From NCBI GenBank assembly GCA_965243375.1, contig CBDEUT010000009.1:896401-960400 (forward strand): a DNA stretch of 64,000 nt, read 5' to 3'. The DNA comes from Alphaproteobacteria bacterium (GTDB taxonomy: Bacteria; Pseudomonadota; Alphaproteobacteria; UBA828). The position numbers and the translations under genes are program-made. Of the stretch, positions 13,946 to 45,881 are shown in pieces; within the stretch, counting starts at the first letter, position 1, and each line of letters begins with the position of its first letter. The notes under the pieces are model-generated. The model had not been told where the DNA came from. It ran no database searches and was given only the letters and a program-made list of their open reading frames with translations.

Positions 13946-13956
13946 GTTGCGCCTCC

Positions 13957-29287: not shown

Positions 29288-29740
29288 TTAGCCCGAGGTC
29301 GCCTTATCGGTGGCCACGGGGACGGTCTTCGCTTGACGGTCTTCCCCGTTCGGACCGCCGCCGATCAGCTCGTCCTGGACCCCTCGCGCGCCGGCGATCA
29401 GCGCGTCCAGCTCCTCTTCGCGGCCTTCGTCGAGCATGTCGTAGAGCAGTTTCGACACCAGGATGTGGGCGGCGCGGAAGGTCAGCTCGATCAGGGGGGC
29501 CAGCCGGTCCGCCGCCGCGCCCGCCGGCGGGCCGTCCGCCACCGCCGCCAGCGCGGCGAAGCGGACGAACTCAGGGCCGGTCAGGCCGCGTTGTTCGGCG
29601 GCGGCCTCGACCCGCTCCCACTCCGGATCGTGGAACCGGATCGAATGCGGGTTGCGTTTCTCCGTCCTGCCGGCCTCGGCCGGGGCGGTTTCGGGCTGTT
29701 TTCCGTCCATTCCGTTCCTTCCGCGCTTCCCGTTTCCCAC
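29288..29740 (-). CDS. ribbon-helix-helix (MobC/CopG-like) DNA-binding protein, putative relaxosome accessory factor
   Basis: 150 aa; HSIRFHDPEWERVEAAAEQRGLTGPEFVRFAALAAV fits a beta-strand + two-helix RHH; starts 31 nt downstream of the traA stop. Confidence 0.5.
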   Translation of the reverse strand: MGNGKRGRNGMDGKQPETAPAEAGRTEKRNPHSIRFHDPEWERVEAAAEQRGLTGPEFVRFAALAAVADGPPAGAAADRLAPLIELTFRAAHILVSKLLYDMLDEGREEELDALIAGARGVQDELIGGGPNGEDRQAKTVPVATDKATSG

Positions 29741-29770
29741 CTTCGCCGGAGGATCCGGCGGCCCGGCGCG

Positions 29771-32700
29771 CTACAGTCCGAGGTCCATGCCGCCCCTGCC
29801 GCGCCCGCGCGCGGGCGGTTCCGGCGCCTTCCCGGGCGCCTTGGCAGGGGATTTCGCGGGCGTCTCCGCCCCCTCCCGGCCCTTGCCGGGGTCCCGTTCG
29901 GCTCCGCGGTCCGGGCGCAGCGCACGGTCTTGGCCGTACTCGGCCGCCTTTTCCGGTGTCCCTCGCCGCATCTCGCCGATGCCTTCGAGCGCCGCGATGC
30001 GCTCGCCGGTGACGGCTTCGAGCTGCGCCTTCAGCTCGTCGGCGTTGTCGGTGACCAGCTCGGCCCGGTCGCGCGCCCGGCTGATCTCGACGTAGAAGCT
30101 CTTCTGCGTGGTGAGGTGCGGGTGCCTGGCCTCCATCGCGGCGATCACGTTGTCCACCGTACGGCCCTGGAAGGCGTACACGGTGGACGCCCAGGCATGG
30201 TCGAGATGGCGAAGCTGCGGGTCGCTCTTGCCCAGCTCCAGCGTCTTCCCGTCCTCCAGGCGGAACGTCACCCGGCCGTTGGCGACCTTGAGCACTTCCG
30301 CCGTGCGGCTGTTGACCAGCCCGAGACCGGCGTCGTTGCGCGTCCAGCGGATGCGGTCGCCGGCCCTGAGTCCGATTTCTTCCGCGCGGTAGACCTCGCT
30401 GCCGCCCTTGCGCCCGCCGATCTCCTGTGGCTTCCAGGCGACCGAGCCGCCCTTTCCGTCGCAGCACCGCGCGGGCCTTGTAATCGACTCCCATGACGCG
30501 CCGCTCGTCGCCCTTCTCGACGCCGATCCGCTTGTAGGGGCGGTGGAAGGCGACCACGTCGCCCGGTCCGTAGTTGCCGGCGAGCGTCTTCTCGGCATTG
30601 GTGTAGCCCATCGAGACCAGCCGTTCGGACGCCATCGCCGCCCCGTGGATGCGGCCCTCACGGGCCAGGCGCTCGCGGATGTGGCCGTTGATCGCCTGGC
30701 GCAGCTCGTGCGAGGGCGCCATCACGCCGGTGTTCTGCCGCGCTTCTTCGTCCAGCCTGAGCCAGCGGGCCGCGACCGCGCCGGCGATATTGTCGGGCTT
30801 CACCTCGGCGACGTTGCTCCCGAGCTTCTCGAAGGCGCGCTCGATGTCGCCCTTGAGGCTGGCTTCCACCGCTTCCTTCAGCACCGCGTCGCGCTGGCGC
30901 ATGATCTCGTCCATCGTCGCGGTCCGCATGCCGGCGGCCTGGAGCTGGGCGAAGGGCTTCCCGGCATCCACTGCATCCAACTGCTTCGCGTCGCCCACCA
31001 GCACCAGGCGGGGGATGCGGAGTTCGTTCGCGATCCTGAGGAGGTCCCGCGCCTGCACGGTGGAGGCGAGCGAGCCCTCGTCCACCACCAGGATCGTCTT
31101 CGCGAAGGCCGCGCGCATCTCCCGCGCGCCCTTGCGCGTGAGCCGTCCCTCCGCCACGCCGGCGTTGCGGGCGAGGAAGCGCTGGAGGGTTTCGGACTCG
31201 ATCCCGGCCTCGGAGGCGAGCGTCCGGACCGCCGACGCGGACGGCGCGAGCCCCGCCATGCGCCAGCCCTTCTTCTCCGCGAGCGCCCGCGCGCGGCTCA
31301 GCATCGTGGTCTTTCCGGTGCCGGCGTAGCCCTGCACGCCCACCGTGCGATCCTTCGCCGACAGGATCAGCTTCACCGCGTCCTTCTGCCCGGCCGTGAG
31401 CGGCCCCTTGTTGAGGTGCCCCTGGACCTGCCAGCCGCGCATCGGCGCCCGGCCGCGGCCCCGGCCGCCGCGCCACAGCGCCACCGCCTCGCGCTCCTCG
31501 CCGACGGTGCGGTCGGTGGCGAGCGAGTCCTCGGCGCCGGGGATGTTCACCGCATGCAGGGTCCCGGCCTTCTCCAGCGCCGCGACCTCGCGTTCGACCT
31601 CCCCGATCGACGCGGCGCCGGGCGCATGGGCGAGCGCGGCGGCCAGGAGATCGGTGCGGGCGAACACCGCCTCGCGCTCCGAGAGGTGCGCCATCCCCCA
31701 GGCCACCGCCTCCGCGGCGGGCGACGACGGCGCGGCTTCCACCGCCCCTTCGCGCGCCGGCGCGTGTGCCCCGGACCCTGCCGCCGCCAGCTCCACGGAC
31801 CCTGAGTCCATGCCGGCTGCGCCCGCCTCTCGTGCATCCCCGATCTCCGGCAGCGCTGTCGCCACTGGTATCCGTGCCTCGCCTGCCTCCGCGGTCGGTT
31901 CCGCCGCCGCTTCCAGACCCGGCGAAGCCGAGCGTTCGACGGCGCCGGCGACCAGCGCACCGGTATCGAGGCCGAGATCGGCCGTCTGCTTCCGCCAGAC
32001 GCCGCGCAGCTCATCGCGGTCGATGTCGCGCTTGACGGCGCGGGTCATCAGCGCCGCTCGCTCCGCCAGGCGAGGATTGTCCGCTGAGCTGCCCAGATCG
32101 CGCGCCGCCATCGCCGCCTCGATCTCCGCCCGCCGCGTCGAGAAGGCCTCGATCGCCGCGCGCGGCACGCCGGCGATCTCGAAACGGCCGTCGGCATGGG
32201 TCTTCTCGATGCCGTAGCCGAGCTTCGAGAGGCCGGCCGCGAGCTCGCTCCGGTAGAGCATCCCGATCAGCTTCTGGCGCGCATAGAGGCCCTCGTTGGC
32301 CATGGTCCGCCACTTGCCGTCGTTGCCCTGCACCATGTTGGCGAGCACGGCGTGGGTGTGGAGCTGCGGATCCAGGTTGCGCGAGGTGTCGTGCCGGAAG
32401 GTGGCGGCGACCATCTTCTGGTTGCCGACCCGCACCATCCTGCCCGTGTCCGGGTCCTTCATGCGGGTCTCGGCCGCGTTCTTCTCCACCCAGGTCAGCG
32501 TCGCGGCGACGGCGCGGTCGTGGGCGTCCACGATGCGCGCATCGCCGCCGACCAGCGCGGCGAGGGAAACGGATTTCGGGGCGGAGAAAGTGAGGTCGCG
32601 GCCGGGGCGGTGCACGATCTCCCCGTCCTTGACGCGCTTGCCGAGCCGCCGCCCCGAGCCGTCCGGCACGCGGCCTTCGAGGACCTGCCGGAACGTATCG

Positions 32701-32906
32701 GCGTCGACCGGTCCCGTCAGCCCGAGCTCTTCGGCGCCCCTGCCGGCCCAGGCGCTGGCCTCGCGGTGCTCGGGATCGTCCTTCGCGTAGTAGCCGTCGC
32801 GCTCGTAGTAGCTCGCTCCCTGGGGCCGGGAGGCGGGCGAAGGAGACAGGGCCGGGCGGAGAGTCCCTTTCCCCGTGCCGGCGGTATGATCGGAGGCCAT
32901 GACCAT
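29771..32906 (-). pseudogene. traA: MOBF-type conjugative relaxase-helicase TraA/TrwC-like, frameshifted near 30430-30480
   Basis: N-terminal relaxase (YYERDGYYAKDD, HTHAVLANM), central AAA_30 helicase (GYAGTGKTT); coding continues in another frame (ORF 29771-30661: ...RIRWTRNDAGLGLVNSRTAEVL...AFQGRTVDNVIA...); the first about 100 codons of the 1,211-aa ORF look non-coding. Confidence 0.8.
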
Positions 32907-33279
32907 GACGCGAACATTTGACGGACCTGACAATGGCCCGGCAGCGCCGAGCCGCAGCTCCCGGCCAACCGGCATCGAGCGCGCCATCGTCCTCTGCGGT
33001 TTCGTGGCCGCGGCGCTGTGGACCGCGCTGTCTGCTGCCGCCGGCACCGGCATGGAATCTGCCGGCGCTCTGTGGCTGGCGGCCATCGCCTGGGCCGTCG
33101 TCTCCTCGCTGGCGCTCGCGCTCCGGCGCGGCGTCCGCGACGGCGACTGGTCCGCTTTCCGCCGCCGCCGGTCCCGGGACAACGGCGACCTCGTGGACTG
33201 GACCACCCGGACCGGCCGCTACACGTATCTTCGGCACCGGGAGGACCGCCTCCTCCACGACGACCGCCACCTGCGCTGA
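32899..33279 (+). CDS. possible small two-TM membrane protein between traA and traG (speculative)
   Basis: 126 aa with two hydrophobic helices (IVLCGFVAAALWTALSAAAGTG, ALWLAAIAWAVVSSLALAL) filling the traA-traG gap on the opposite strand; could be a chance GC-rich ORF. Confidence 0.2.
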   Translation: MTMTRTFDGPDNGPAAPSRSSRPTGIERAIVLCGFVAAALWTALSAAAGTGMESAGALWLAAIAWAVVSSLALALRRGVRDGDWSAFRRRRSRDNGDLVDWTTRTGRYTYLRHREDRLLHDDRHLR

Positions 33280-33296
33280 CCGGCCCGCGGCCCGGC

Positions 33297-34299
33297 TCAC
33301 GGCGACGAATCCCCCCAGCCCCTCTCGTCCCGTCGCGGCGCGGCCTCTTCGGTGCCGCCGGGGACGGCATCGGGCACCGCGTTCTGCGCCGTGCCGAACA
33401 GCTTGCCGGCGAGCCAGTCGCCCACCACGGGCAGGTTCTCCGTCGCGTGCCGCTCGAACGGCTTGTCGGTCTGCGGGCAGCGCCGCCAGCAGCTCGGCCC
33501 GCGCCAGCGCGTCCGTCCGCGCGTCGGGGAAGATGCGCCTGCCGAACACGGTGCCGGCGCGGGCGATCTCGGCGTTCCACTGGCCGTTGAGCCGCCCCGC
33601 CGCATCGCGGCAGGTGACGATCTGACGGTCGATCGGCGTGGCGCCGGTGCCCGTCGCCGGCTGGCGGGTGGCGAACTCGACCATGCGCGCGGGCGAGGCC
33701 CCCGCCGACGGCGAGCCGGTCGCGGTGACCAACGCCCAGATGTCCGTCGACTCTCTGAGATCGTCCGCCGACATGTGCCCGAGCAGCAGCGCGTGGAACA
33801 CGCACTGGCGGGCGTAGTTGCGCACGTTGCGGGCGAACACTGCGTCGGTTATCTCGAGCCGGGTCGCCTTGGCCGCGAGCCTGGCCCCGAAGATCAGCCC
33901 GTGGCGCCGGTACTGGAGGTCGTTCGGCAGCGTGAACGCCTGCTCGGTGAGGCGCGTCAGCCCATCTCCGACCTGCGACGTAATCGAGGCGAACAGCGCG
34001 AGGCCTATGGGCACGTTCGCCACCACCGCCGGGGCCAGCGTGGGGTCCAGCCGGTCGACGACCCGCACCGTCGCCTTGGGCACGATCATCGCGCCCCAGA
34101 CGACCACGAACAGCAGGATCCACTTCGCGTTGTCCTTCCACGAGCCGCCGAAGGCGGTGCGGAAGAGCACCCAGGCCAGTCCGGCGACGCCGGCGAGCTG
34201 GGCAAGCGTGATGTATGCGCCACCCGAGGTGATCGCGGCGACCGCGTTCAGGAGATCGACGAGGTAGGTCCCGCCGCCGAGGGTGAAGAGCTCGTACAT
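33297..34299 (-). pseudogene. traG: TraG N-terminal-domain protein (F-type mating-pair stabilisation family), frameshifted near 33450-33500
   Basis: MYELFTLGGGTYLVDLLNAVAAITSGGAYITLAQLAGVAGLAW... is the TraG_N signature; the reading frame switches to the 33297-33605 ORF for the C-terminus (...DKPFERHATENLPVVGDWLAGKLFG...). Confidence 0.7.
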
Positions 34300-34311
34300 T
34301 ATATATGGGGG

Positions 34312-35739
34312 CTACCGCGACCCGGCCCCGGCGCCGCCGCGCGCGAACGCTACGGCCGCGCGCAGATCGGCGGACAAGGCGCCCGCCAGCTCGGTCTCGA
34401 TCAGGCGCAGCTTCTCGACCACGGCGAGCGCGGTGTTGAGCCGTTGCAGGCCCTGGTGGCGGTGGCGGGCGAGAGCCACCCGGTTGGAACGCAGGCCCTC
34501 GCGCCAGCGCTGCAACTGCTCGCCGTCGGCGATGTCGAGCGTCCCGGCGCGCTCCTCGACCGTGCGGTGAAGATCGGTGATCCAGACCTGCATGACATCG
34601 AGCGCCACCGCCTCCGCCAGCGCCTCCATCTCCTGGTCGATCACCGCACCCCGGTATGCGGCGGCCGCGTTGGCGACCCGGTAGACCGGCAGCGTGGTGA
34701 GGTTCACGAGGCCGAGGGCCTCCGCCCGAGGCGCTGTGTCCGTGCGGACGGCGTCGACCAGGTCGCGCAGGAGGCCGGCGACACGCACGCGGAATCCCCG
34801 GTTCGCGGGAATGGTGACCGTGGCCAACGTGGGGTTGAGGCAGGCGGCCGGCGTGTCGCAGCGGTAGACCGGGAGCGCGCCGCCGCCCTCCATCAGCACC
34901 TCGGTGACGCGCCGGTCGAGCGCCAGCGGCTCCAGGATGCGCACGCGCGGGCCGGAGGTATCGGAGTCGGAGACGGGTGCCGTGACGATCAGCGTGCCCG
35001 TGACCGCCATGGCGAACTCGGCAAGCTGGGTGTCTCCGGCGAGGAAGGACGACGCCCGGATTGCCTTCCAGGCATAGTTGACGTTGACCGGCACCTGGTC
35101 CGCCATGGCGCCCGAAGCGCTGGCGAGCGTCGAGTTGCGCCGCCCGTCAGCGCCGCAGCCGTGCTTGGCTGCCGCGTAGTCCGAGAAGATGCCCTGGCCG
35201 GTGCCGATCGCGGCGCAGATCGCGGACGAGGCCCGGTCGTTCTTCGACCACAGTGCGCCGACCAGCGCCTGCGCGGTCTCGCAGGAGTTGAGATTCTGCG
35301 AGTTCACCCACTGCGCCAGCGCCCGGAGCTTGGCCATGGTCTCGGCGATCACCGGCGAGATCGTCTCCAGCGCCAGCTCGAAGGCGAAGCCGGCCGCGTT
35401 CTGCGCCACCGCGCGGCCGAAGGCGATGAGCTGGTCCGAGTTGATGAAGGAGAAGGCGCCGGCGAAGGCGTCGATGCCGCCGCAGCCGGCCCGGAAGGAC
35501 GGCAGGTTGACGGTGGCGATCTGCTCGGAACGCACGGGCGCGCGGAGGTAGAGGTTGCCGAGGGTCCAGTGCCCCGAGGCCTGGCCCTGGAACGCGGTCG
35601 GGCCGGTGGTGTTGACCGCCGCGCCCTGCCAGAAGCGGTTCATCTCCGAAAGCACGTCCGCGCGGGCGGGCGATGCGGCGATGGCCAGCGTGGCGATTGC
35701 CAACGCCGCAATGGAATGCCTCTTCCATTCAATAGTCAT
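34312..35739 (-). CDS. traH: F-type conjugal transfer protein TraH
   Basis: 475 aa, signal peptide, conserved TraH regions (NLPSFRAGCGGIDAFAGAFSFINSDQL..., C-terminal coiled region). Confidence 0.85.
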   Translation of the reverse strand: MTIEWKRHSIAALAIATLAIAASPARADVLSEMNRFWQGAAVNTTGPTAFQGQASGHWTLGNLYLRAPVRSEQIATVNLPSFRAGCGGIDAFAGAFSFINSDQLIAFGRAVAQNAAGFAFELALETISPVIAETMAKLRALAQWVNSQNLNSCETAQALVGALWSKNDRASSAICAAIGTGQGIFSDYAAAKHGCGADGRRNSTLASASGAMADQVPVNVNYAWKAIRASSFLAGDTQLAEFAMAVTGTLIVTAPVSDSDTSGPRVRILEPLALDRRVTEVLMEGGGALPVYRCDTPAACLNPTLATVTIPANRGFRVRVAGLLRDLVDAVRTDTAPRAEALGLVNLTTLPVYRVANAAAAYRGAVIDQEMEALAEAVALDVMQVWITDLHRTVEERAGTLDIADGEQLQRWREGLRSNRVALARHRHQGLQRLNTALAVVEKLRLIETELAGALSADLRAAVAFARGGAGAGSR

Positions 35740-36550
35740 TGCCCGGCTCCAGTGCGGTGAGCGTGTAGATCCGCTCGGCCATCTCGTCCTCGGCCATGAC
35801 GCCGAAGCCGACCGGCAGCACCCGTTTCGTCACCGTGTCGAACAGCACGAGCGCCGGGACGGGCGCGTTCCCCAGGCCGAGCCGGGCGGCGCGGCCGTTG
35901 TCCGCCACCGCCTCGGGCCAGCCCTCCAGCGCCTCGCCGGTGAGCGACACAGCGAGCACATCGAGTCCGTGACGGGACGCGAAGGCGCGCAGCAGCGGGC
36001 CGAACACCCGGCACGCCGCGCAGCCGGCATGGCCGAGGTAGATGAGGCCGTAGCGCTCGCCGAGGTGGGCGAGGGCGGCGTCGCGGGCCTCACGCCGTTC
36101 GTCCGACCAGACCTGCTTGGCGAGCGCGCCGACCGGGCGGCGGAGCGTGTAATCCAGTTCCGGCGTCGCCCAGACCGTCCTCCGGACAGCGTCGGAGAAG
36201 GCGGCGGCCCGTTGCAGGGTTTCCTGTTGCAGGCGCAGGTAGGCGGCGACCTTGGCGGGCGTCGGGTTCAGGATGGCTTCCGCGCGCGCCTCCTCCAGCG
36301 CCTTGCGCATCGCCTCGATCCGCTCCGACGCGGATTGCGCGGGGCCGGGAGGGGGTGGCGGCGGAACAGGCTCAACACGCGGCGGCTCCTCCTCCCGTCG
36401 GTCGCAGTAGAAGTGCCAGCCCAGCGAGGCGCCGGCGTTCGGATCCCCGCACCACGAGCGCCATTCGGCGGCGGCCGCGGGCGCGCCCAGCGCCGACCAC
36501 ACGACCGTCGCGGCAAGGACACGTCTCAGGGCACCCACGGCGGCGGTCAT
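35729..36550 (-). CDS. traF: F-type TraF (thioredoxin-fold pilus-assembly protein)
   Basis: Signal peptide then ...ERYGLIYLGHAGCAACRVFGPLLRAFASRHGLDVLAVSLTG... thioredoxin-like; start placed at the MTAAVG ATG overlapping the traN stop. Confidence 0.7.
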   Translation of the reverse strand: MTAAVGALRRVLAATVVWSALGAPAAAAEWRSWCGDPNAGASLGWHFYCDRREEEPPRVEPVPPPPPPGPAQSASERIEAMRKALEEARAEAILNPTPAKVAAYLRLQQETLQRAAAFSDAVRRTVWATPELDYTLRRPVGALAKQVWSDERREARDAALAHLGERYGLIYLGHAGCAACRVFGPLLRAFASRHGLDVLAVSLTGEALEGWPEAVADNGRAARLGLGNAPVPALVLFDTVTKRVLPVGFGVMAEDEMAERIYTLTALEPGNDY

Positions 36551-36551
36551 C

Positions 36552-37667
36552 TCACTGGCCCCGGCGGTAGAAGTCGCGGATGCGCGCCCGCATGGCATCC
36601 CCGGTGTCGCCCGCGTCCGGCAGCGACACCGAGGGCTCCCTCGATCCGTCCATCAGGTCCTGGGTGAACTCGGAGAGATCGAGGCGCGGGAAGTCGATGC
36701 CCTCGATCTCGGCCACGGTGAGGCCCCGGCAGCTCGACCATCCGATGCCGAGCTGGGCTCGGCCCTGCTGCTGCAGGATGCGTCCGAGCTTGGAGCCGAA
36801 TACGCACCAGGCCCGCGAGCGGCGGATGCAGGCGCCGAAGAAGGTGCGCTTCGAGCAGTACTTGCCGAGATAGTGGGTGTTGCCGGCGTTGCGCTCCTCC
36901 GCCAGCTCGCGCTCCGAAGCCGAGCAGTTGGCGAGGCCCACGAGCACGCCGCTGTTCTTGCAGCAGTTGGCGAGCCCGAACAGCTTGATGTGGCAGGCGC
37001 GGCGCTGGCCGGTGAAGAAGCGCATGTCCTGGCGGTCGAATTCGTCCCCGCCCAGCTCCAGCGCCATGTTGAGACGGGTCGTGGCCTCGACGAAACCGGT
37101 GTTGGCCTCCGGGCGCACGGTCTCGCAGCCGGCGCCGACGCAGTACCGCACGGACCCGCAGGTCCCGCCGTCTTCCGCATCCTGAAGGTCCGCGCCGCAG
37201 TCCGCGGTGCCGCCCGAGGCAAGGCCGCCCGCGCCGTGCACCGAAGACTGCGGCGATGCGGCGATATTCTCGGAGCGGGTCACCACCGGATCGGTCGCCG
37301 GCACGCTCGCGGCGCGCCGGCTCGTCGTGCCCCGGACCACCGCGCGCCCGGCCGCACCGCCCGGATCGTCCGGATCGCCAAGCCGTGCCCGGCCTTCGTC
37401 CTCAAGCCGGCTTGCACCGATGCTGCGTTCGGGCAGGTTCGTGCCCGCGTAGCCCGGCACCTCCGCCACATTGGACGCATCCCGCGCGATCGTGCGCGCC
37501 GTCGAATTGCCCGCGTTACCGATGGCCCGCGCCGCCTCTGTGGGATCCTCGGCGTGGGCGGCCCCGCCCAAGACGATCCACAAGAGGAACCCGCAGACCG
37601 CCGCCATCAGCGTCCAGCCGAACAGCCGGGTCGCCCGGGCTCTCCGCGCGATCGCCCGCGCCGTCAT
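36552..37667 (-). CDS. traN: F-type TraN (Cys-rich outer-membrane mating-pair stabilisation protein)
   Basis: 371 aa, signal peptide, many conserved Cys (CGSVRYCVGAGCE...CCKNSG...CSKRTFFGACIRRSRAWCVFGSKLGRI). Confidence 0.8.
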   Translation of the reverse strand: MTARAIARRARATRLFGWTLMAAVCGFLLWIVLGGAAHAEDPTEAARAIGNAGNSTARTIARDASNVAEVPGYAGTNLPERSIGASRLEDEGRARLGDPDDPGGAAGRAVVRGTTSRRAASVPATDPVVTRSENIAASPQSSVHGAGGLASGGTADCGADLQDAEDGGTCGSVRYCVGAGCETVRPEANTGFVEATTRLNMALELGGDEFDRQDMRFFTGQRRACHIKLFGLANCCKNSGVLVGLANCSASERELAEERNAGNTHYLGKYCSKRTFFGACIRRSRAWCVFGSKLGRILQQQGRAQLGIGWSSCRGLTVAEIEGIDFPRLDLSEFTQDLMDGSREPSVSLPDAGDTGDAMRARIRDFYRRGQ

Positions 37668-38404
37668 GGTTCCCTGCCGAGGCGTTCGAGCCAGGCCTTC
37701 GCGACCCCGCGCCCCGCATCGCCCTCTTCGGCCACCGCCTCAAGCGCTGCGACGAGGCCGATGTTTCCCGTGACGAGGTCGTGCGGCGGCGCGGGATCGC
37801 CGGCGCAGCCCCGGCTCCGGCACGGCGGCACGCCGCCCGGCGCGACCACCACGGCGGGCACCCTCTCGATGCCGAACAGGCGGAACAGGCGCGGATCGAT
37901 GGCAACGCCTACCTCCGCGCCGCCGAGGCGTTCGCCGATCCGCGTCGCGGTCTCCGGCAGCCCGCCTTCGCCGACCCCGCGCAGCACCAGCGGCGCGCCG
38001 GCCGCTGCGGCATCGCGCGCCCATTGGCGCCAGCTCGGGGCAGGCACCGAGAGGCTGGTGAAGATCAGGAGTTCCGCCGAGCCCGAACGCGGTCCCGAGA
38101 GTTCGCCCGCGTGGCGTTCGGCCGGAAGGGGCGCGGCGGAGAGGCGGGGCGACCCAGGCAACGTCTGCCGGGCGGTCTCGCCGGCCCGTTCCAGCGCACG
38201 GTCAAGGATCGAGCGGGTCCACGCGCCAAGCGACTCCCCGTCGTTGGCACCCGCCTTGCGCAGCACGTCATCGACCAGGCGGGCCGCATCGGCTTCGGGA
38301 CCTGCCGTGCCCGTCCCGTCCGCGCCTACAGGATTGGGCGAGCCCGCCGCCAGCACCGAAGACGCCAGGAACACCGCAACTAAACCTTTCCTGACTGGCG
38401 TCAT
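37664..38404 (-). CDS. trbC: F-type TrbC-like periplasmic protein
   Basis: 246 aa from MTPVRKGLVAVFLASSVLAAG (signal peptide); gene order traU-trbC-traN-traF-traH-traG matches F-like T4SS. Confidence 0.65.
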   Translation of the reverse strand: MTPVRKGLVAVFLASSVLAAGSPNPVGADGTGTAGPEADAARLVDDVLRKAGANDGESLGAWTRSILDRALERAGETARQTLPGSPRLSAAPLPAERHAGELSGPRSGSAELLIFTSLSVPAPSWRQWARDAAAAGAPLVLRGVGEGGLPETATRIGERLGGAEVGVAIDPRLFRLFGIERVPAVVVAPGGVPPCRSRGCAGDPAPPHDLVTGNIGLVAALEAVAEEGDAGRGVAKAWLERLGREP

Positions 38405-38448
38405 CTTCCTATCCTCGACACTCGATTTGTCTTTGTGTTTCAATGGGT

Positions 38449-39450
38449 TCACAGGAGGCAACAATTGCGCTTTTTCCACAGCAGGTAGCCGAAGTTCTCT
38501 CCGGCCACCGGCAGCTCGCGGAGCGTCTCCCAGAGCACCGAGGAGCGCCCGGTCGGGTTGCAGCCGGTGAACGAGTCGACGGCCGGAACCGGCTGGATCA
38601 TCTGCCAGCGGTACTGCGACTTCTTCATGATCGGCATCGGGTAGCGGCCGCAGAGCGCGCCGGAGCCCATCGTCCCCCAGGCGAGCCCGGCGCGGTGGAG
38701 CCGGTAGAGCAGGCGCTGGGAGGCGAGCAGCGACGCCTGCACCCCGCCGACATGGGCCGCGACGTTGCCGGTCAGCGGATACATCCCGCCCTGGCATCCC
38801 GCGCACCAGAACAGCGGATCGAGCGGCAGCCCGGCCGACGAGGCCGCGCAGTCAGCGGCGCAAGCGGCCTGCGCGGGCAGGTTGGCGAACAGCGCCGCCT
38901 CGGGGTTGAGCAGGAAGGTGAGCTCGTCGTCGAGCCAGGCCGGGTCGAGCTCCGAGGCCCAGGCGATGTCGAGACCGCCGCCCTCCAGGCAGCCCAAGTC
39001 GAGCAGCACCCCGATCCAGGACAAGAGCGGATACATGTAGTAGTGCGCGTGCCAGACCGAGCCCTTGGCGCCGTCGCCGCCGGCAGCACCCGTGCGCCCG
39101 CGCCCGGCCGGCAGGCCGGGATCGATGGTGAGGCCGCCGAGGTTGGGGAAGCACCAGGGCGCCCGCGTCGCGTCGACCAGCCTCGCCGGCTCCCACACCC
39201 CGAGCGAGAGGCCGATGCGCGGAATGGGCGAGCCGCAGAGGCAGATCGGCGACCCCGGATTCGGAGTATCCAGCACGCCCGAGACGCTGCCGATGGAGAT
39301 CGGTCCGATCGAGATCGGAAAGAGGCACTCCCAGCAGACGTCCGAGATCGGATTGACGAACCGCCCGGTGCAGGACTGCGCCGAGGCCGGGGCAGACCAG
39401 AGCAGGGCGGCAAGGGCGAGCGCCGCGAGCGGGGCGAGGCGGCGGATCAT
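38449..39450 (-). CDS. traU: F-type TraU
   Basis: 334 aa from MIRRLAPLAALALAALLW (signal peptide); conserved CTGRFVNPISDVCWECLFPISIG...CLCGSP...HAHYYMYPLLSWIGVLLD... TraU signature; upstream part of the ORF is non-coding-like. Confidence 0.85.
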   Translation of the reverse strand: MIRRLAPLAALALAALLWSAPASAQSCTGRFVNPISDVCWECLFPISIGPISIGSVSGVLDTPNPGSPICLCGSPIPRIGLSLGVWEPARLVDATRAPWCFPNLGGLTIDPGLPAGRGRTGAAGGDGAKGSVWHAHYYMYPLLSWIGVLLDLGCLEGGGLDIAWASELDPAWLDDELTFLLNPEAALFANLPAQAACAADCAASSAGLPLDPLFWCAGCQGGMYPLTGNVAAHVGGVQASLLASQRLLYRLHRAGLAWGTMGSGALCGRYPMPIMKKSQYRWQMIQPVPAVDSFTGCNPTGRSSVLWETLRELPVAGENFGYLLWKKRNCCLL

Positions 39451-39854
39451 TCCGCTGCCGCCGGTCCGGCGGCGCCGCCCTCCGCGGCACCCGTCATGTC
39501 GTCCGCCGCGCGGCGTGCGCCCAGGATGTTGACCATGCCGTGCCGGCCCGAAACGACGATCTCGGTGACCGTCCGGTCGTTGCCTTCCCTGTCGGTGAAG
39601 CCGCGCGTCGCGATCCGCCCCTCGACCATCACCCGGTCGCCCTTGCGCAGCATCTTTTCGACCGCCGCGACCGTGGGTCCGTAAACGACGATCCGATGCC
39701 ATTCCGTCGCCTCGGCCGGGCGGCCGTCCCCGTCCGTCCACTTCTCGGTCGTGGCGAGCGTGAACACGGCCGCCTTGCCGCCCTTCTTCAGGTCGCGGAT
39801 CGCCGAACAGCGGGAATGCTGCGTAGCCCCAGGCCCCGTTGGACCAGCTCGCAT
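39447..39854 (-). CDS. SSB-like OB-fold protein with aberrant N-terminus (second ssb, possibly frameshifted)
   Basis: ...FTLATTEKWTDGDGRPAEATEWHRIVVYG...KGDRVMVEGRIATRGFTDREGNDRTVTEIVV... is strongly SSB-like, but the first about 25 residues do not match the SSB N-terminal strand in any frame. Confidence 0.45.
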   Translation of the reverse strand: MRAGPTGPGATQHSRCSAIRDLKKGGKAAVFTLATTEKWTDGDGRPAEATEWHRIVVYGPTVAAVEKMLRKGDRVMVEGRIATRGFTDREGNDRTVTEIVVSGRHGMVNILGARRAADDMTGAAEGGAAGPAAAE

Positions 39855-39974
39855 TGACGTGCACGCGCGAGGCCGCGGCGAGCCAGAGCGCCGCCAGCGC
39901 GATCATCACCGCCAAGCCGATATGGCGCCGACGCCTATTGCCGGCACGCAGGGCAAAGGTCCGACGCTGAGCGG

Positions 39975-40382
39975 TCACCGCCCGTCTCCCGGGGCCGGTC
40001 CGCTGCTCCCGGCCCGCCCCCGTTCGAGGAGCCCCGTGAGCGCCGCCTCGACGTCAGCCGTCAGATCCGGCGCTCCGGCGGCAACCGCGCGGGCCGGCAG
40101 CAGCACCACGCCGCGAGTTTCCGCAACCCGATCGAGCGCGGCTTCCAGCGCGGCGCCCCAGGCGCGCACATCTTTGGACGTCCGGCCTTCCGCCGCCGCG
40201 CGGGTCGTGTACGCTGCAGTCATCTCCCCGAGGCGGACCGAACCGATGCGGGGCGCCTCGGACGCGTCAAGCCGCACCGTCGCCGCCGCGACCACGGCCG
40301 CCACGGCACTCGACAGCAGCACCGCCGAGACCATGACCGGCCAGTTCGACCCGCTCCGGTCCATGTCAGCCTTGCCCGGCAT
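39975..40382 (-). CDS. trbI: small signal-anchored protein, TrbI-like by position (trbI-traU neighbourhood)
   Basis: 135 aa, single N-terminal TM (WPVMVSAVLLSSAVAAVVAAA); assignment rests mainly on gene order. Confidence 0.4.
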   Translation of the reverse strand: MPGKADMDRSGSNWPVMVSAVLLSSAVAAVVAAATVRLDASEAPRIGSVRLGEMTAAYTTRAAAEGRTSKDVRAWGAALEAALDRVAETRGVVLLPARAVAAGAPDLTADVEAALTGLLERGRAGSSGPAPGDGR

Positions 40383-41004
40383 CCGCGGCGACCGGCTTGC
40401 CCCGCTCGTCCTCCGATCCGGCCAGCGCCCGGAAGCGGGCGAACCAGGCCTCGGCCGCCTTGTCCGGCGGCATCGGGCGGATGCGCCGCTTCAGCGGCGG
40501 GAAGCCGATCCCGGCGCCGGCGGGATCATTCCCGTCCAGCAGGTCGCGGCTCTCGGCGGCAGCCGCCATGCGGGTCACGAACCGCAGCAGTTCGGCGTGT
40601 TCTTCCTCGAGCACTGCTCCCAGGCCCGCGGCCTCGCGCACCGCCGCCTCGATCCCGGAGGCGAGGCGGCCCGTCCTTTCCATCGCACGCTGCGAACCCG
40701 GAGCCGCGCCCCGGAGCCAGGCCGACGGCGCGTCCGCAACCAGCGCATGGAGCGCAAGCGTTCGCCGGTCTTCGTCCGCGAGCCCGTCGAGCGCCTCGAT
40801 CTCTTCCGACACCATGACCGCATGGGCCGCAACCGAGTGGTAGCCGCGCATGCAGCCGCCCCGGCGGCAGGTGTTGGCCAGCACATGGGCCAGCGCCTCG
40901 AAGTCGATATCGGCGGCGGTGATGTTCTCCGGGTCGCCCGGCCAGTTGAGCGGGCGCTCCGCACGCGCGCTTCGCCGGCGCGCACCGCGAGTTCTTGCCG
41001 TCAT
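40366..41004 (-). CDS. HD-domain phosphohydrolase-like protein
   Basis: 212 aa; GYHSVAAHAVMVSEEI resembles the H...HD motif region of YfbR-type HD hydrolases; weak. Confidence 0.4.
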   Translation of the reverse strand: MTARTRGARRRSARAERPLNWPGDPENITAADIDFEALAHVLANTCRRGGCMRGYHSVAAHAVMVSEEIEALDGLADEDRRTLALHALVADAPSAWLRGAAPGSQRAMERTGRLASGIEAAVREAAGLGAVLEEEHAELLRFVTRMAAAAESRDLLDGNDPAGAGIGFPPLKRRIRPMPPDKAAEAWFARFRALAGSEDERGKPVAADAGQG

Positions 41005-42362
41005 GGCGCTTCTTCCGTTTCAGTTGTTTCGGGATGTGCGGCGGCAGCGGGGGCGGTTTCCCCGGCAAGCCGGTCGATGGCCTCGACCGTCGTGAGCCCC
41101 TGCGCCTTCAGGGTCTCGACCGCCGCGAAGGCGGGGCCGCGCGAGGAGAACAGCGCGACCGACCAGGCGTCGAGCACCAGCCGCGCGACCCGCCAGCCGT
41201 CCGGGCCGTGCAGCACGATCTCCGCGTAGCGGCCGTCCGCGGTGGTCAGGCTCTTGAGCGCGCGCTCCATGCCGGGATCGCAGTGGATGCGCTTCTCCTG
41301 CTTCAGGAGCTCGACCGACTCGTCCTTCTGGGCGAGGAAGATCGTCCAGTCCGAGTTCTCCCAGGCCGCGCGCGCCGCCGGGTTGGCGTAGTAGTCGTTT
41401 ACGCTCTGAGTCCCGGTGACGAGAGCCCCGCGGTACTTGCGCGCCCGGCGCGCGGCGCCTTCGAGAAACGCCTTCGAGTCCTCGCCCGAAAGCAGGTCCC
41501 ACGCCTCGTCGATGACGATCGCCTTCGCCCGCGTGCGCGGGCCGTGATACATGCGCTGGGTGGCGAGGAAGACCACCAGCATCAGCACCACCGCCTGGAC
41601 GTCGCCCCGGCCCTTGAGCTCGGCGAGCTCGAACACGGTGAGCGCGTTCTCCAGGTCCGGGACGTTGTTGCCGGCAAAGAGGCGCCCCATCGCGCCGCCC
41701 GGACACCACGGCCCGAGAGAGGTCGCCATGTCGGCCGCGCGCCGGTCGTCGCGGGCTTCGAGGTTCTTGCGCACCGTGCCGAGATCGGCGTCGTTGCCGG
41801 CCTCGTCCCAGGGCGCTGCAATGGCCTCGGCGATGTGCGCCGCCTCGATGTCGTCGATCGAGCCCCGGCGCCGTGCCATCCGCCCGATGACGCCGGCCAG
41901 CATGGCGAAGCACTCCTCGCGGTAGTCGCCGTCGTGATTGGCGGTGCCTGAGTCGATCATGGCGAAGGGGTTGAGGCAGGCCGGGTCCTTGCCGAAGGCG
42001 ATGAACGCGCCTTCGAGGGCTTCGGCGGTGTGCTGGAAAGACCGCCCGTCGTCGATCACCACGGCCTCGCCGCCGGCGCCGATCAGCCCGGTCACCAGCT
42101 CCTGCATCAGCACCGACTTGCCGGAGCCCGACTTGCCGGTGACGGCGACGTTGTAGTTGCCCGCCTCGTTGGCGAAGGGGGACCAGCAGGCGGGCTGGCC
42201 GCGGCGCCCGATCAGGAAGAGAGCGGGCGGGTTGTCGGGATTGGCCGGCTGGCCGCGCCACTCGCCGTGCAGCGGCGCGAGGTTGACCGCGCTCGATGTC
42301 AGCAGGGTCTTCATCCGGCCCATGCGTTCGAGATCGGCGTCCAGCCCGCCGGCGGACGCCAT
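41001..42362 (-). CDS. traC: TraC/VirB4-like T4SS ATPase, C-terminal ATPase half only
   Basis: 453 aa; Walker A VTGKSGSGKS at about residue 75 (in full-length F TraC it lies near residue 480), Walker B AIVIDEAWDLL; the N-terminal about 400 aa are not encoded upstream. Confidence 0.75.
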   Translation of the reverse strand: MASAGGLDADLERMGRMKTLLTSSAVNLAPLHGEWRGQPANPDNPPALFLIGRRGQPACWSPFANEAGNYNVAVTGKSGSGKSVLMQELVTGLIGAGGEAVVIDDGRSFQHTAEALEGAFIAFGKDPACLNPFAMIDSGTANHDGDYREECFAMLAGVIGRMARRRGSIDDIEAAHIAEAIAAPWDEAGNDADLGTVRKNLEARDDRRAADMATSLGPWCPGGAMGRLFAGNNVPDLENALTVFELAELKGRGDVQAVVLMLVVFLATQRMYHGPRTRAKAIVIDEAWDLLSGEDSKAFLEGAARRARKYRGALVTGTQSVNDYYANPAARAAWENSDWTIFLAQKDESVELLKQEKRIHCDPGMERALKSLTTADGRYAEIVLHGPDGWRVARLVLDAWSVALFSSRGPAFAAVETLKAQGLTTVEAIDRLAGETAPAAAAHPETTETEEAP

Positions 42363-42657
42363 GGGCAGCCGCGGCCGGAGGGGACGGGTCCGGCCTACGC
42401 GCCGGGCCCGTCCCCGGCGCCGCGCGCCAAGTCGCGGTAGCGCCTTGCGTCCGCCCTCGCCTTCCTCAGCCAGCGCCCGATCTGCGAGTGCATCGTAAGC
42501 ATCCGGCGGGGACCGCAGACGGTGAATCGCGGAACGTGACGGGGAGTTCCAAGGTGGGCAGGCGAGTGACGCTCAGCCCCACGGTGACGCTCACGGTGGA
42601 CCGCGCAGAGACGCGGCCTCGGCCGCAGGGAAGACGGTGTCTCTGGTGAGGTCCGGC

Positions 42658-44244
42658 TTAGGCGGCCAGGGCCTGGTGCTGGGCTGTCTTCCAGTTCCAG
42701 GGCAGGAGCTGGTGCAGGTCGCTTTGCGGCAGATCGGCAATCTGTCCGAGAACATCGGCGAGCCAGGCCTGGGGATCGACATCGTTGAGCTTGGCGGTGC
42801 CGATGAGGGTGTACATCGCCGCCGCCCGCACTCCGCCGCGATCGGAGCCGCAGAACAGCCAGGATTTTCGTCCCAAAGCGATGACCCGAAGCGCCCTCTC
42901 GACAGCGTTGTTCGTGAGGCAGATCTGGCCGTCATCGAGGAAACGGGTGAAGCCGTCCCAGCGTCTGAGCATGTAATCCATCGCCTTGGCGACAGAGGCG
43001 TGGCGCGACAGCCTGGCACGCTCCGTGCGCATCCAGTCCTCGAGATCGGCGACGAGCGGCGCGCTCGCCTCCCGGCGCACGGCAAGGCGCTGATCGGCAC
43101 TCTTGCCGTTGATCTCGCGTTCGATGTCGAACAGCGCGTCGGTCCGCTTCACCGCCTCCATCGCCAGCGGCGAGATCGGCGGCGCCTGCTCGCCGCGCCT
43201 CTTGCTCGCCGCGATATCGGCAAGCTCGTAGAACTTCCTCCGACTGTGAGCCCAGCACAGGGCCTCGATCACGGCTCCCGGCGAGCGGCCCGGCACATAG
43301 AGCCGGTTGAAGCCAGCATAGGCATCGGCTTGAAGCACCCCGGCAAAGGTCTTCAGGTGCTCGACCGGGTGATTGCCCGAACGGTCGCGGGAGTATCGGA
43401 ACAGCACGGCCGGCGGATCCGGACCGCCGAACGGCCTGTCGTCACGCACATAGGCCCAAGCCCGCCCGGTGACGGTCTTGCCCTTGGCCAGCACCGGGAC
43501 GGGAGTGTCGTCGCCGTGCAAGCGCCGGGCCGCAAGCACGTGATCGGCGATCAGGTCATGCAGCGGTTTCAGCGCCACGGCGCAGGCCCCGACCTGATCG
43601 GCCAGCGTCGACAGGCTCAGGTCGACCCCCTCGCGCGCGTAGCGCTCGCGCTGCCGGTTCAACGGCTGGTGCTGGCCATATTTCTCGAACACGATCGTCG
43701 CCAGAAGGTTCGGACCCGCCCAACCTCGCGGCACCGCGTGGAACGGCGCCGGCGGCTGCGAGACCTTCTCGCAATCGCGGCAGGTGAACTTCTCGCGGAT
43801 CGTCTGGATCACCTTCCACCGGCGCGGGATCACCTCAAGCGTCTCGGTCACGTCCTCGCCGATCTTCGACAGCCGCTCCGACCCGCAGCACGCGCACGAT
43901 GTCGGTGCAGGAACCACCACCCGCTCGCGCGGCAGATGCTCGGGGAAGGGCTTGCGCGACGGCTTGCGGCGCGTGAACCCCTTGACCTGGGTGGTCTCGG
44001 CCGCGGCTTGCTCGGCCGCGAGATCGTCCTCCGTCGCGTCCGCCGTCAGCTCGTCGAGCGCAAGCTCCAGTTGGTTGAGGAGACGCACCGTGCGCTCCGA
44101 GCGCTGCCCGTAGAGCGCACGGCGCAGCTTCTCGACCATCAGCTTCAGCGAGGTGATCTGCTCCTCGGCCGCCGTTGCCCGAGCCTCCGAGGCCGCAAGC
44201 GCCGCCTCGAGAGTTTCAACGTCGCGTCGGGCCGTGACCGTCAT
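42658..44244 (-). CDS. tnpC: IS66-family transposase TnpC (copy 2)
   Basis: 528 aa; leucine zipper, CACCGSERLSKIGEDVTETLEVIPRRWKVIQTIREKFTCRDCE zinc finger, DDTPVPVL core. Confidence 0.9.
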   Translation of the reverse strand: MTVTARRDVETLEAALAASEARATAAEEQITSLKLMVEKLRRALYGQRSERTVRLLNQLELALDELTADATEDDLAAEQAAAETTQVKGFTRRKPSRKPFPEHLPRERVVVPAPTSCACCGSERLSKIGEDVTETLEVIPRRWKVIQTIREKFTCRDCEKVSQPPAPFHAVPRGWAGPNLLATIVFEKYGQHQPLNRQRERYAREGVDLSLSTLADQVGACAVALKPLHDLIADHVLAARRLHGDDTPVPVLAKGKTVTGRAWAYVRDDRPFGGPDPPAVLFRYSRDRSGNHPVEHLKTFAGVLQADAYAGFNRLYVPGRSPGAVIEALCWAHSRRKFYELADIAASKRRGEQAPPISPLAMEAVKRTDALFDIEREINGKSADQRLAVRREASAPLVADLEDWMRTERARLSRHASVAKAMDYMLRRWDGFTRFLDDGQICLTNNAVERALRVIALGRKSWLFCGSDRGGVRAAAMYTLIGTAKLNDVDPQAWLADVLGQIADLPQSDLHQLLPWNWKTAQHQALAA

Positions 44245-44311
44245 GGCCGGGAATGAATCAGATTCGCAGCCTCACGGCAATTGCCAATCGCGCAGGGTGA
44301 TTCGCCCGGCC

Positions 44312-44659
44312 TCAGCCCACCCGCGACGGGCGCCAAGTGCGAACCGGGTTGCGCCACTCGATCCCCTCAAGCAGGTAGGCGAGCTGCGCCGAGCTGATCG
44401 ACAGTGCGCCGCCCGATGCCGACGGCCAAGTGAACCGGCCCCGCTCCAGGCGCTTGGCGTAGAGCGAGAACCCGAGACCGTCATGCCACAAAATTTTGAC
44501 GAGATCGCCGCGGCGTCCGCGGAACACGTAGAGATCCCCCGCGTGGGGATCGCGGCCGAGACCCTCCTGAACCTGAAGCGCCAGCGTGTTCATGCCACGG
44601 CGCATGTCCGTCACCCCGGTCGCCAACCACACCCGCACGCTGCCCGGGACCGGGATCAT
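44312..44659 (-). CDS. tnpB: IS66 TnpB (copy 2)
   Basis: 115 aa, MIPVPGSVRVWLATGVTDMRRGMNTLALQVQ...LYVFRGRRGDLVKILWHDGLG. Confidence 0.9.
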   Translation of the reverse strand: MIPVPGSVRVWLATGVTDMRRGMNTLALQVQEGLGRDPHAGDLYVFRGRRGDLVKILWHDGLGFSLYAKRLERGRFTWPSASGGALSISSAQLAYLLEGIEWRNPVRTWRPSRVG

Positions 44660-45060
44660 CGGCGCTCCACGACCGCAAGCACCCGCGCCAGCGCAGGGGC
44701 ATCCACCGTTCCGTCAACCGTCACCCGCACGCCACCGGAAAGCGCGATCTCGATCCGCCCGGCCGCCGGCGCTGCGCCGAAGTAGCCGTCCTCCGGCGGT
44801 GCATCGCCCGACGGCGTGACAATCACCGGCACGAACCCGCCGCCCCCGGCCTCGCCATCCTCCTCGCGAAACCGACGTCGCCAATCGAACACCAGATTGG
44901 CGCGCACGTCGTTGCGCTTCGCCACCGCCGTCACCGTGGCGCCGGGCGCGTAGCTCTCCGCAACGATCCGCCGCTTGTCGGCGTCGCTCCACTTCCGGGC
45001 CCGGCGGCGTTTCCCGGCCTCGGCCTCGGCACCCAAATTCGCCTGCTGTTCATTCGACAT
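44656..45060 (-). CDS. tnpA: IS66 TnpA (copy 2)
   Basis: 134 aa, ...WSDADKRRIVAESYAPGATVTAVAKRNDVRANLVFDWRRRF. Confidence 0.85.
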   Translation of the reverse strand: MSNEQQANLGAEAEAGKRRRARKWSDADKRRIVAESYAPGATVTAVAKRNDVRANLVFDWRRRFREEDGEAGGGGFVPVIVTPSGDAPPEDGYFGAAPAAGRIEIALSGGVRVTVDGTVDAPALARVLAVVERR

Positions 45061-45170
45061 CCGCGATCGCCTCCGTCTGCTCCACGGTGGGCACCACGGT
45101 GCCCACCACCGATCGCGAACACTCGCCGATTTTCAGCTTATCGCACAGACGGTCCCCGCCGGATGCTTAC

Positions 45171-45881
45171 AGTGCATCCAGCCGCCGACGAAATATTCCT
45201 TCTCCGCCTCGGCCGGCCCCCAGATCGCCGCCGCGATCTCCCGGTACGTCCGGCCCTCCGCGCTGCCTTCCAGGGCGGCCAGCAGCTCGCGATCCCCAGC
45301 CCCCGAACCCGCCCCGGCGGAGGGGCCGGCACCCCCGACCAGAGGTCCTCGATCCGCAGCACCGTGCGCACCAGCTCCAGCCCGGCATCGTCCGGGAACG
45401 CCGCGCCGCCGGGAAGGCGGACCTGGACCGCCGCGCCGGGCCGCTCGGCCTTCAGCACCAGCGCGCCGTCCGCCAGCCGCAGGCCCGCGAGCACGGACCC
45501 GCCAGCCGCCGCAAGCGCGGCCAGCGCCGCCGCATCCCGCACCGCCCTGCCGTCCGCCATCGGGCCCCGCGCCCAGAAGGGCGAGACGGGGCCGTCCTCG
45601 TCGTAGGGGTCTTCCCAAGCAAGCAGACCCCAGCCGAGCGCGGCCAGGTCCGCCGCCGTCTGGAGCCTGACCGGAAAGGGCGCCGCCTCCGGCAGGCCGG
45701 GAGACGGCGCGCGGCGCAGCCAGGCCCTGCGGTAGCCTGCGCTCGCCCGGACGAAGCTCCAGGCGCGGACCGGGTCCCACTCGACCGGCTGCGCGCGGCG
45801 CCGTCCGCGGCGGCCCCGGCCGGACCCGGCCGGCGGGTCCCCTTCCGGGTCCTCCAGGATCATGGACTTCGCTCCCCGCAC
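45171..45881 (-). pseudogene. DUF2285-like ICE regulator gene (HTH C-terminus) with an internal frameshift, 3' end severed by IS66 copy 2
   Basis: N-terminal part in one frame (...AADLAALGWGLLAWEDPYDEDGPVSPFWARGP...), then Gly-rich linker + HTH (GDRELLAALEGSAEGRTYREIAAAIWG) in the -1 frame from about 45300; the IS is inserted after ...EYFVGGWMH; the original last 36 codons lie at 42373-42495. Confidence 0.55.

Follow-up and report, generated by a model that had tools for sequence, protein, structure and literature searches.

The window analysed here is a 64,000-nucleotide stretch of DNA from an Alphaproteobacteria bacterium (assembly GCA_965243375.1, contig CBDEUT010000009.1, positions 896,401 to 960,400), and its transfer (tra) genes lie between positions 29771 and 42384. 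We conclude, with a probability of roughly 0.88, that this region is the non-functional remnant of one conjugative element of the MPF-F/MOBF type, belonging to a family with many related copies in other genomes. Six lesions would account for its present state: four illegitimate deletions, one 5-nt deletion in the relaxase gene and one insertion of an IS66-family insertion sequence (IS) into the gene of an FseA-like regulator. A sequence-only reading of the same DNA had described an eroding, non-functional transfer module, and that description is strongly supported. The comparison with orthologous elements, which it had proposed as a check, traces most of the supposed frameshifts to deletions rather than point lesions.

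The G+C content of about 72% across the region fills raw lists of open reading frames (ORFs) with spurious frames, and true frames were told apart by the G+C content of third codon positions (GC3). Gene identities come from Pfam and NCBIfam profiles searched against the window ORFs. Every gene named by the sequence-only reading is verified by these profiles on the minus strand, where all features described below lie unless stated otherwise. The claimed F-like type IV secretion system (T4SS) content and order hold as well: the C-terminal half of traC, trbI, ssb, traU, trbC, traN, traF, traH, traG_N and a MOBF relaxase. Scanning genome contigs with TraU gave 255 relatives, and 80 of these loci were retrieved (L001-L080). 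The organisms are uncultured bacteria throughout, in most cases under the label Alphaproteobacteria, Thalassobaculaceae, Defluviicoccus or Rhodospirillales, and their TraU proteins are 83-96% identical to that of the window. In L003, and in L004 together with its upstream continuation on the same contig (L083, with a complete T4SS gene set), the intact order begins with an integrase gene on the reverse strand, a giant Calx-beta protein gene, the FseA-like regulator gene, an HTH_17 gene and a 110-aa pilin-sized ORF. These are followed by traL, traE, traK, traB, traV, traC (866-902 aa), orf207, trbI, an S26 peptidase gene, traW and ssb, and then by traU, trbC, traN, traF, traH, traG (~975 aa), a reverse-strand ORF of ~120 aa, traD (681 aa) and the relaxase gene. 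On the 3′ side of the relaxase, relatives and window alike carry an ORF of ~130 aa and then a YAcAr gene. A tblastn census finds the complete T4SS set kept in most of the 80 loci; thus, the pieces missing from the window are losses in the window copy.

Breakpoints were located by blastn of the window against the 80 related loci followed by base-level pairwise alignments. Identical discontinuities, four in number, appear in collinear blastn alignments to each of the 25 best-matching loci listed from the 80 searched. At junction D (42385..42396), about 5.8 kb are lost relative to L004/L083: the HTH_17 gene, the 110-aa pilin-sized ORF, traL, traE, traK, traB, traV and codons 1-447 of traC, including the TraC_F_IV domain. 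The stop codon of the FseA-like gene (TAG, 42397-42399) is here followed within ~10 nt by traC codon ~443-448; positions 3-72 of L004 align to window 42460-42391, and traC homology restarts at L004 ~5879. What remains of traC (41001..42384) is the 3′ half with the ATPase domain only, matching positions 370-798 of 800 in TIGR02746 and residues ~448-901 of the 902-codon TraC reading frame of L003 at 95.6% identity (tblastn). Its sole available start is an internal ATG at 42362, which gives an ORF of 41001-42362. PF11130 (TraC_F_IV) is not found in the window's traC, while relatives have PF11130 together with the ATPase, so that the claim of a C-terminal half alone is borne out and a full-length TraC is not encoded.

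Junction A (39801/39800) removes 1178 bp relative to L003, with a CGA microhomology. The loss covers the S26 peptidase gene beyond codon ~59, the entire traW and the first 17-18 codons of ssb; the intact counterparts in L003 lie at 8133-8930 (Peptidase_S26) and 8900-9598 (TraW_N). The N-terminal ~59 codons of the signal peptidase (39801..39978, identified by alignments to L003, L007, L011 and L059) now adjoin an ssb remnant (39447..39800) that lacks its start codon and first ~17-18 codons. The open frame spans 39447-39854, but the SSB match covers only model positions 16-99 of PF00436, with positions 1-15 missing, and relatives carry a complete 133-aa SSB immediately upstream of traU. The non-SSB N-terminus that had been noticed at 39780-39860 is therefore real as an observation, yet it arose because the 1178-bp deletion fused ssb to foreign coding sequence and not through a frameshift; divergence of the ssb N-terminus is likewise rejected in favour of this deletion fusion.

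A comparable scar lies inside traG, where junction B (33473/33472) marks the loss of 1916 bp relative to L008, again with short microhomology. The 5′ remnant (33473..34299) holds codons 1-~276 and matches TraG_N (PF07916) at positions 1-255 of 462. The 3′ remnant (33297..33472) is out of frame with it and holds the last ~58 codons and the native stop (tblastn to TraG residues 921-975; L008 16934-17109). Relatives encode a TraG of 973-977 aa, and no full-length TraG is encoded in the window. The frame 3′ of the junction (class 0) terminates at 33297, which is the native traG stop; recovery of this stop in the new frame means that the apparent frameshift comes from a deletion with a length not divisible by three. 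A frame switch had been called at 33450-33500, and GC3 places the switch at ~33480; a frameshift as its cause is rejected, given the 1916-bp deletion against L008.

The remaining discontinuity, junction C (~32824..32830), was not among the suspected sites. Relative to L003, L007, L008 and L059, it has lost ~2.1-2.26 kb, with CCGGCCC-type microhomology: traD in its entirety and the relaxase gene up to and including codon 12. The type IV coupling protein (TraD/TrwB) gene, which in L003 (18590-20635) matches TrwB_AAD_bind at E=8e-142, is thereby deleted. Relaxases of the relatives begin MVASIGAVAAPAQGASYYE, whereas the window joins foreign sequence to QGASYYE. Together the four deletions (about 5.8, 1.18, 1.92 and 2.1 kb) amount to ~11 kb, and the junctions share 3-8 bp of microhomology, which points to illegitimate recombination or replication slippage. 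The missing genes do not turn up at another place in the window: traL/E/K/B/V, traW, traD and the N-terminal half of traC, all present in relatives, give no tblastn match anywhere in the 64-kb window. The same holds for the pilin gene and for any tra fragments beyond those described here. This confirms the claim that the essential genes traL/E/K/B/V, pilin, traW and traD are gone.

The relaxase gene carries a further lesion. It persists as a MOBF (TrwC/TraI-type) relaxase-helicase pseudogene (29771..32822; PF08751 TrwC, E=3e-87), in which the relaxase domain itself is nearly whole (PF08751 positions 3-285 of 286; NF041492 MobF, 297 bits against a cutoff of 100). A frame switch had been noted at 30430-30480, and GC3 places it at ~30480. 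A query stitched over both frames recovers 120 homologues at 71-92% identity, most covering 100% of the query, and all 120 read through the switch site. DNA alignment to L081 and L082 reveals a 5-nt gap between window positions 30462 and 30461, where the window has GTGCTG^CGACGG and L082 has GTGCTG[CTGGA]CGACGG. The switch is thus confirmed, while its cause is a 5-nt deletion and not a homopolymer error, as the site contains no homopolymer longer than 3. The last ~230 codons (29771-30461, the UvrD_C_2 region) are out of frame, and with 12 codons lost at the other end, the relaxase has no unbroken ORF that begins at its native start and takes in the C-terminal motifs of the SF1B helicase. Full length (~1020 aa expected) is not reached by any of the 120 best homologues, which have 870 aa at most, and many start at an internal Met or with out-of-frame leaders. 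Deletion fusions also occur among relatives, with TraG_N::helicase in P0029 and P0106 and TraN::helicase in P0120, and L082 has a Hydantoinase_B::TraH fusion and an IS-interrupted TraG. Decay or mis-calling of the relaxase seems to be common in the family.

The sixth lesion is the IS66-family element itself (42495..45170, 2676 bp), which encodes tnpA, tnpB and tnpC (PF05717, PF01527 and the IS66 transposase). It is bounded by 21-bp terminal inverted repeats, GTAAGCATCCGGCGGGGACCG, starting GTAAGC, and flanked by a perfect 8-bp target duplication, AGTGCATC, at 42487-42494 and 45171-45178, so that all the hallmarks of the family (tnpA/B/C, terminal inverted repeats and 8-bp duplication) are present. 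The element sits in the FseA-like regulator gene 31 codons before the stop, separating the 5′ part (45171..45863) from the severed 3′ end (42397..42494, stop TAG 42397-42399). In silico removal of the IS and one copy of the duplication restores a continuous regulator frame ending in GGWMHSQIGRWLRKARADARRYRDLARGAGDGPGA before the stop, which reads GGWMH up to the insertion point and SQIGRWLRKARADARRYRDLARGAGDGPGA from there to the stop. A perfect duplication and an exactly reconstituted gene indicate a simple insertion of IS66 into the regulator gene. On the same two grounds we reject the idea that IS66 truncated traC by mediating an adjacent deletion. The copy shares three ORFs, GTAAGC termini, a length of ~2.7 kb and the 8-bp target duplication with IS66 elements at large, from which it shows no notable difference, and its DNA is ~76% identical to Azospirillum IS66 copies. 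A megablast of 29000-46000 against plasmids matched IS66 only and no related tra region.

Between junctions A and B lies a block of genes that the deletions have spared. traU (38449..39450, 333 aa; PF06834, E=1.3e-113) is intact and 94-96% identical to its closest relatives. trbC (37664..38404, 246 aa; TIGR02742 positions 1-129 of 130, 96.5 bits against a cutoff of 66), traN (36552..37667; PF06986, E=6.7e-40), traF with its thioredoxin fold (35729..36598; PF13728 positions 1-224 of 224, E=2.6e-63) and traH (34312..35739, 475 aa; PF06122 over the whole model, E=3.5e-102; 91% identity to TraH of L003) all appear intact. The five genes are full-length and four match their whole model; TraN, of the short form typical of the family, matches the C-terminal model part only and is collinear with relatives without a large gap. 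Outside the block, trbI (39975..40382, 135 aa; TrbI_Ftype, PF09677, E=8e-9) also appears intact and equals the L083 gene in length. Between traC and trbI lies a conserved 212-aa ORF with no assigned function (40366..41004), which has a 207-aa counterpart at the equivalent position in L083 and gives no Pfam or PADLOC match. A conserved 126-aa ORF on the plus strand (32899..33279), also with no assigned function, appears retained from its GC3 pattern; its equivalents (120-121 aa in L003 and L011) lie between traG and traD in relatives, and it has no Pfam match.

Transfer by F-type systems needs pilin, TraL/E/K/B/V/C/W/U/F/H/G, TrbC, TraD and a relaxase, with TraN and TraG acting in mating-pair stabilisation. 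At least 12 required F-system functions are missing or broken in the window copy. The copy no longer has the candidate pilin, the core in the inner and outer membranes (TraL/E/K/B/V), TraW, the coupling protein or the upstream region of the operon. Only truncated or split forms are left of TraC, TraG, SSB, the S26 peptidase, the relaxase and the FseA-like activator. With these genes lost and broken, the element would form no pilus or channel, couple no DNA and process no oriT on its own; this lack of transfer capacity is deduced from gene content and established F-system genetics. Loss of the promoter-proximal part of the operon, interruption of the activator and the absence or breakage of at least 12 functions thus argue for a dead remnant. 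The decay is most likely recent, with traU-trbC-traN-traF-traH and a few small ORFs still open because the deletions have not yet hit them. Several points weigh on the other side. The contiguity of the junctions is known from assembled sequence alone. The nearest relative is only ~83% identical in DNA, so that no sister copy dates or polarises the deletions. Five adjacent genes (6.3 kb) are fully open and free of lesions, which could hint at retained use, although chance is an adequate explanation, and other copies in the same genome may in principle complement the element in trans.

Three rival accounts of the region were weighed. In the first, the element is a streamlined mobilisable one that still transfers by means of machinery supplied by intact sister elements present in its cell. 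Copies in related genomes do number from 2 to at least 8, and the T4SS set is complete in most of them. For RAGE in Orientia, a proposal exists that a transfer apparatus is assembled in trans from genes that lie dispersed (PMC10732058), which offers an analogy. However, the element's own relaxase has lost its native N-terminus and a frameshift divides it. IS66 interrupts the activator, the element has no integrase at the position seen in L083, and sister copies in related genomes share 78-95% DNA identity, which makes cross-recognition between relaxase and oriT uncertain. We regard mobilisation of this kind as very improbable. A slimmer chance still is given to selection having kept the traU-trbC-traN-traF-traH block for a non-conjugative role, for example in the envelope or in adhesion; this is the least probable account that we considered. 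The block (33473-39800, 6.3 kb) is collinear with relatives and its five genes are free of lesions, although ~11 kb around it have been deleted. On the other hand, no function is known for periplasmic assembly proteins of the traU-traH type without a core complex and pilin, the operon has lost both its promoter-proximal part and its activator, and it is no surprise that one block should survive four random deletions. Co-option has no positive evidence in its favour.

The lesions might also be sequencing or assembly artefacts, namely homopolymer indels and collapsed repeats, in an element that is in reality intact. G+C-rich DNA (~72%) with many short G or C runs invites such errors, and a family with multiple copies within genomes can confuse assemblers. 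However, four deletions of 1.2-5.8 kb join non-homologous points that share just 3-8 bp, too little overlap to mislead an assembler. The small relaxase indel is 5 nt long in GTGCTG^CGACGG, where no homopolymer exceeds 3, and the IS66 has a perfect target-site duplication. The sole site with a G run (~45310) is conserved in independent assemblies. Homopolymer errors, which the sequence-only reading had offered as its alternative, find no support at any of its four suspected sites, which resolve into two kilobase deletions, one 5-nt deletion and one conserved frame change. We therefore hold artefacts to be scarcely credible, a shade less so than mobilisation by sister elements, and retain decay of a conjugative element as the explanation of the region.

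The last of the four sites, 45295-45340, had been listed as a suspected indel in the regulator gene, and it is no lesion but a feature of the gene family that recurs in independent assemblies. The N-terminal part of the regulator is read in one frame up to WSGVPAPPPGRVRGLG, and the DUF2285 part lies in the −1 frame. The change falls at ~45310, where CTG GGG ATC is read as GGG GAT, in a region with G4-G5 runs. The protein stitched across the two frames matches PF10074 (DUF2285/RovC_DNA-bd; E=2.9e-6, 28.3 bits against a cutoff of 26.4) and carries the N-terminal motifs RAWSFVRAS and GWGLLAWEDP, so that the DUF6499-like and DUF2285 pair is present. With a −1 step between GGG and GAU, it aligns without a gap over the junction to the single-frame homologue P0174 at 44% identity (E=1e-43; VRGTGDRELLAAL in the stitched product, VRGTGDGDLLKAV in P0174), and it is weakly collinear with RovC (6xz5). 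The ~47 closest homologous proteins (54-98% identity) lack PF10074, and all seven whose sequences were read share the out-of-frame Arg-rich tail; the 98% identical homologue P0121 matches the window's own ORF from its ATG. Single-frame proteins with PF10074 are found only among distant homologues (42-43% identity). The two-frame layout and a conserved G-rich stretch recur in 8/8 homologous DNA loci (L083-L090; positions 10001-10800 in L083), which represent six distinct sequences, L084-L086 being identical. A scan of metagenome contigs for the FseA-like gene gave 3 loci only, identical over the 950 nt compared.

Substitution patterns reveal which frame is under selection. Over the post-shift region of the five closer relatives, variable sites fall on the three codon positions of the −1 frame in the numbers 14, 13 and 32 (chi-square p=0.003), and 23/43 variable codons are synonymous-only in that frame, against 5/42 and 5/43 in the other two. 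Decay or sequencing error at ~45310 is rejected, as the frame change is conserved and under purifying selection. From these patterns we conclude that it is a selected feature of the family, and, given a conserved and selected −1 frame, it is probably a −1 programmed frameshift. The shift site would be the G-rich linker CGG GGG NNG GGG AUS, most simply by a slip from GGG to GGG followed by GAU, which would join the DNA-binding DUF2285 domain to DUF6499 and the middle domain. Alternatively, the DUF2285 part may be translated independently, without recoding.

A precedent exists in FseA of ICEMlSymR7A, which has the same domain pair in two reading frames at the head of the transfer region in an ICE (integrative and conjugative element), adjoining an HTH_17 (RdfS-like) gene (PMC10359603; PMC4755241). 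The known frameshift in FseA is +1 at UUUC next to WGL (PMC4755241; PMC10359603) and follows DUF6499, whereas the present family has a −1 change within a G-rich linker that immediately precedes DUF2285. The known +1 site is rejected as an explanation, since WGL is read in frame and the change occurs ~110 codons downstream. The chances are about even, in our estimate, that the family makes an FseA-like master activator through a conserved −1 programmed ribosomal frameshift and that this is a second, independently evolved recoding site in the regulator class. The window's own regulator gene is additionally inactivated by IS66. Just upstream of the FseA-like gene, three relatives have a small ORF of 69-129 aa (L089 2795-3004, L088 2735-3004 and L090 2615-3004). 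That of L089 has a weak PF10074 match and may be a QseM-like antiactivator consisting of a lone DUF2285; the window has no space for such an ORF between 45881 and 45919.

The family to which the remnant belongs is repeated within genomes, with 2 to at least 8 copies per metagenome-assembled genome and, in the top case, at least 8 on the 5.3-Mb contig CBDDOM010000002.1. DNA identity among the copies of one genome is 78-95%, which indicates many diverged elements and not one recent burst. F-plasmid MPF-F/MOBF systems (the F tra operon, with the R388 TrwC-type relaxase) have the same gene families in nearly the same order. In comparison, the additional features of this family are an S26 peptidase, an ssb gene placed between traW and traU, a TraN of short form, the FseA-like regulator and the giant Calx-beta protein. 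Its elements sit on megabase-sized contigs, some of them labelled as chromosomes, and more than half of the essential genes are absent from the window copy. The ssb and S26 signal-peptidase genes lie inside the F-type operon between trbI/traW and traU (L003 9603-10004; L083 20266 onward), and the window has a second, unrelated and complete ssb at 20542-21033.

The giant Calx-beta repeat protein is encoded at 45919..51717 (1932 aa; PF03160 in 5 stretches, E=2.6e-83). Its gene is directly upstream of the FseA-like gene in L083, L088, L089 and L090, and L083 4911-10693 matches window 51793-45171 in blastn, so this synteny makes it likely that the gene is conserved cargo of the family. These Calx-beta/SWM-repeat proteins range from 727 to more than 4000 aa (the L083 gene occupies 5149-9948), and the window gene has internal tandem repeats of ~585 bp at 47793-49644 with 86-90% identity. 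In L083 the integrase lies beyond the Calx-beta gene; no integrase is found at the equivalent position in the window. Window 63442-63903 has a 74% DNA match to a 485-aa gene of L083 (1992-2452) that is found there past the integrase, with the Calx-beta region starting ~2.5 kb further on. In the window, ~11.6 kb separate this match from the Calx-beta gene, and the interval holds genes for a histidine kinase, an EF-hand protein, cytochrome b561 and an amidohydrolase, which suggests an insertion or a different element end. A tRNA scan of the window found none, so there is no obvious tRNA integration site, and an Rfam scan of the whole window at gathering thresholds gave no matches.

At the other end of the region, the sequence-only reading had pictured an eroding ICE whose integrases, cargo and defence genes persist. 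The erosion is upheld, but the integrases and defence genes are not shown to belong to the element, and the integrase of an intact relative sits at the opposite end. Two tandem tyrosine-integrase genes (12764-14092 and 13957-15252) are ~66-70% identical in DNA; an integrase fragment lies at 10239-10724, and G+C falls to 0.52 at 10001-12000. A second, unrelated IS66 copy (region 3776-7717; tnpA 3776-4204, transposase 4692-6329) adjoins a gene with a PADLOC match (E=2e-174) to SngB, from the Shango defence system, and a Pfam match to BrxC_BrxD; SngB is all that PADLOC detects among the flanking ORFs. A large IS66-like unit at 15262-19020 is bounded by 159-bp inverted repeats (15262-15420 and 18862-19020, 98.7%) and contains, besides an ORF of 249 aa, a transposase of 874 aa whose N-terminus is a coiled coil. 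A unit 69-79% identical to it, with a DruA-annotated gene, is inserted in the decayed tra region of L082 (6468-9745). Just past the end of family homology (~27188) lies a Tn7- or Mu-like transposition module consisting of an HTH_23 gene (25851-26486), an rve integrase-core gene (24318-25850) and an AAA_22 ATPase gene (23488-24573), and an AAA_25/RepA-like gene with a winged helix-turn-helix is found at 22466-23557.

RAGE of Orientia and Rickettsia is another F-type ICE with many copies per genome, many of them truncated, fused or interrupted by transposases (PMC10732058). The window family shares with it the F-type machinery, multiple copies in alphaproteobacterial genomes and decayed copies (compare L082, P0029 and P0106). 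However, RAGE has Ti-type TraA/TraD, inhabits obligate intracellular Rickettsiales and is degraded in most copies, whereas the window family has a MOBF relaxase, large (4-6 Mb) high-GC genomes and complete T4SS sets in most sampled copies. Decay of conjugative elements by deletion and IS insertion is well known, with RAGE as the extreme, and the window is an ordinary instance.

The region thus documents, junction by junction, how a conjugative element dies, and there is little new in that finding itself. It also demonstrates that apparent frameshifts in high-GC sequence can be the scars of kilobase deletions, and a gene caller would here give misleadingly long fusion ORFs, with open frames of 762 aa for "TraG" and 1211 aa for "relaxase". 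What is modestly novel is the family, with its multiple copies, Calx-beta cargo and embedded ssb and S26 peptidase genes, and the −1 frame architecture of its regulator. The F-type elements to which the remnant belongs form a large family that had not been described before, and genomes of uncultured Alphaproteobacteria contain several diverged copies of them. If confirmed, the −1 frame change in their activator would extend the idea that recoding throttles ICE activation.

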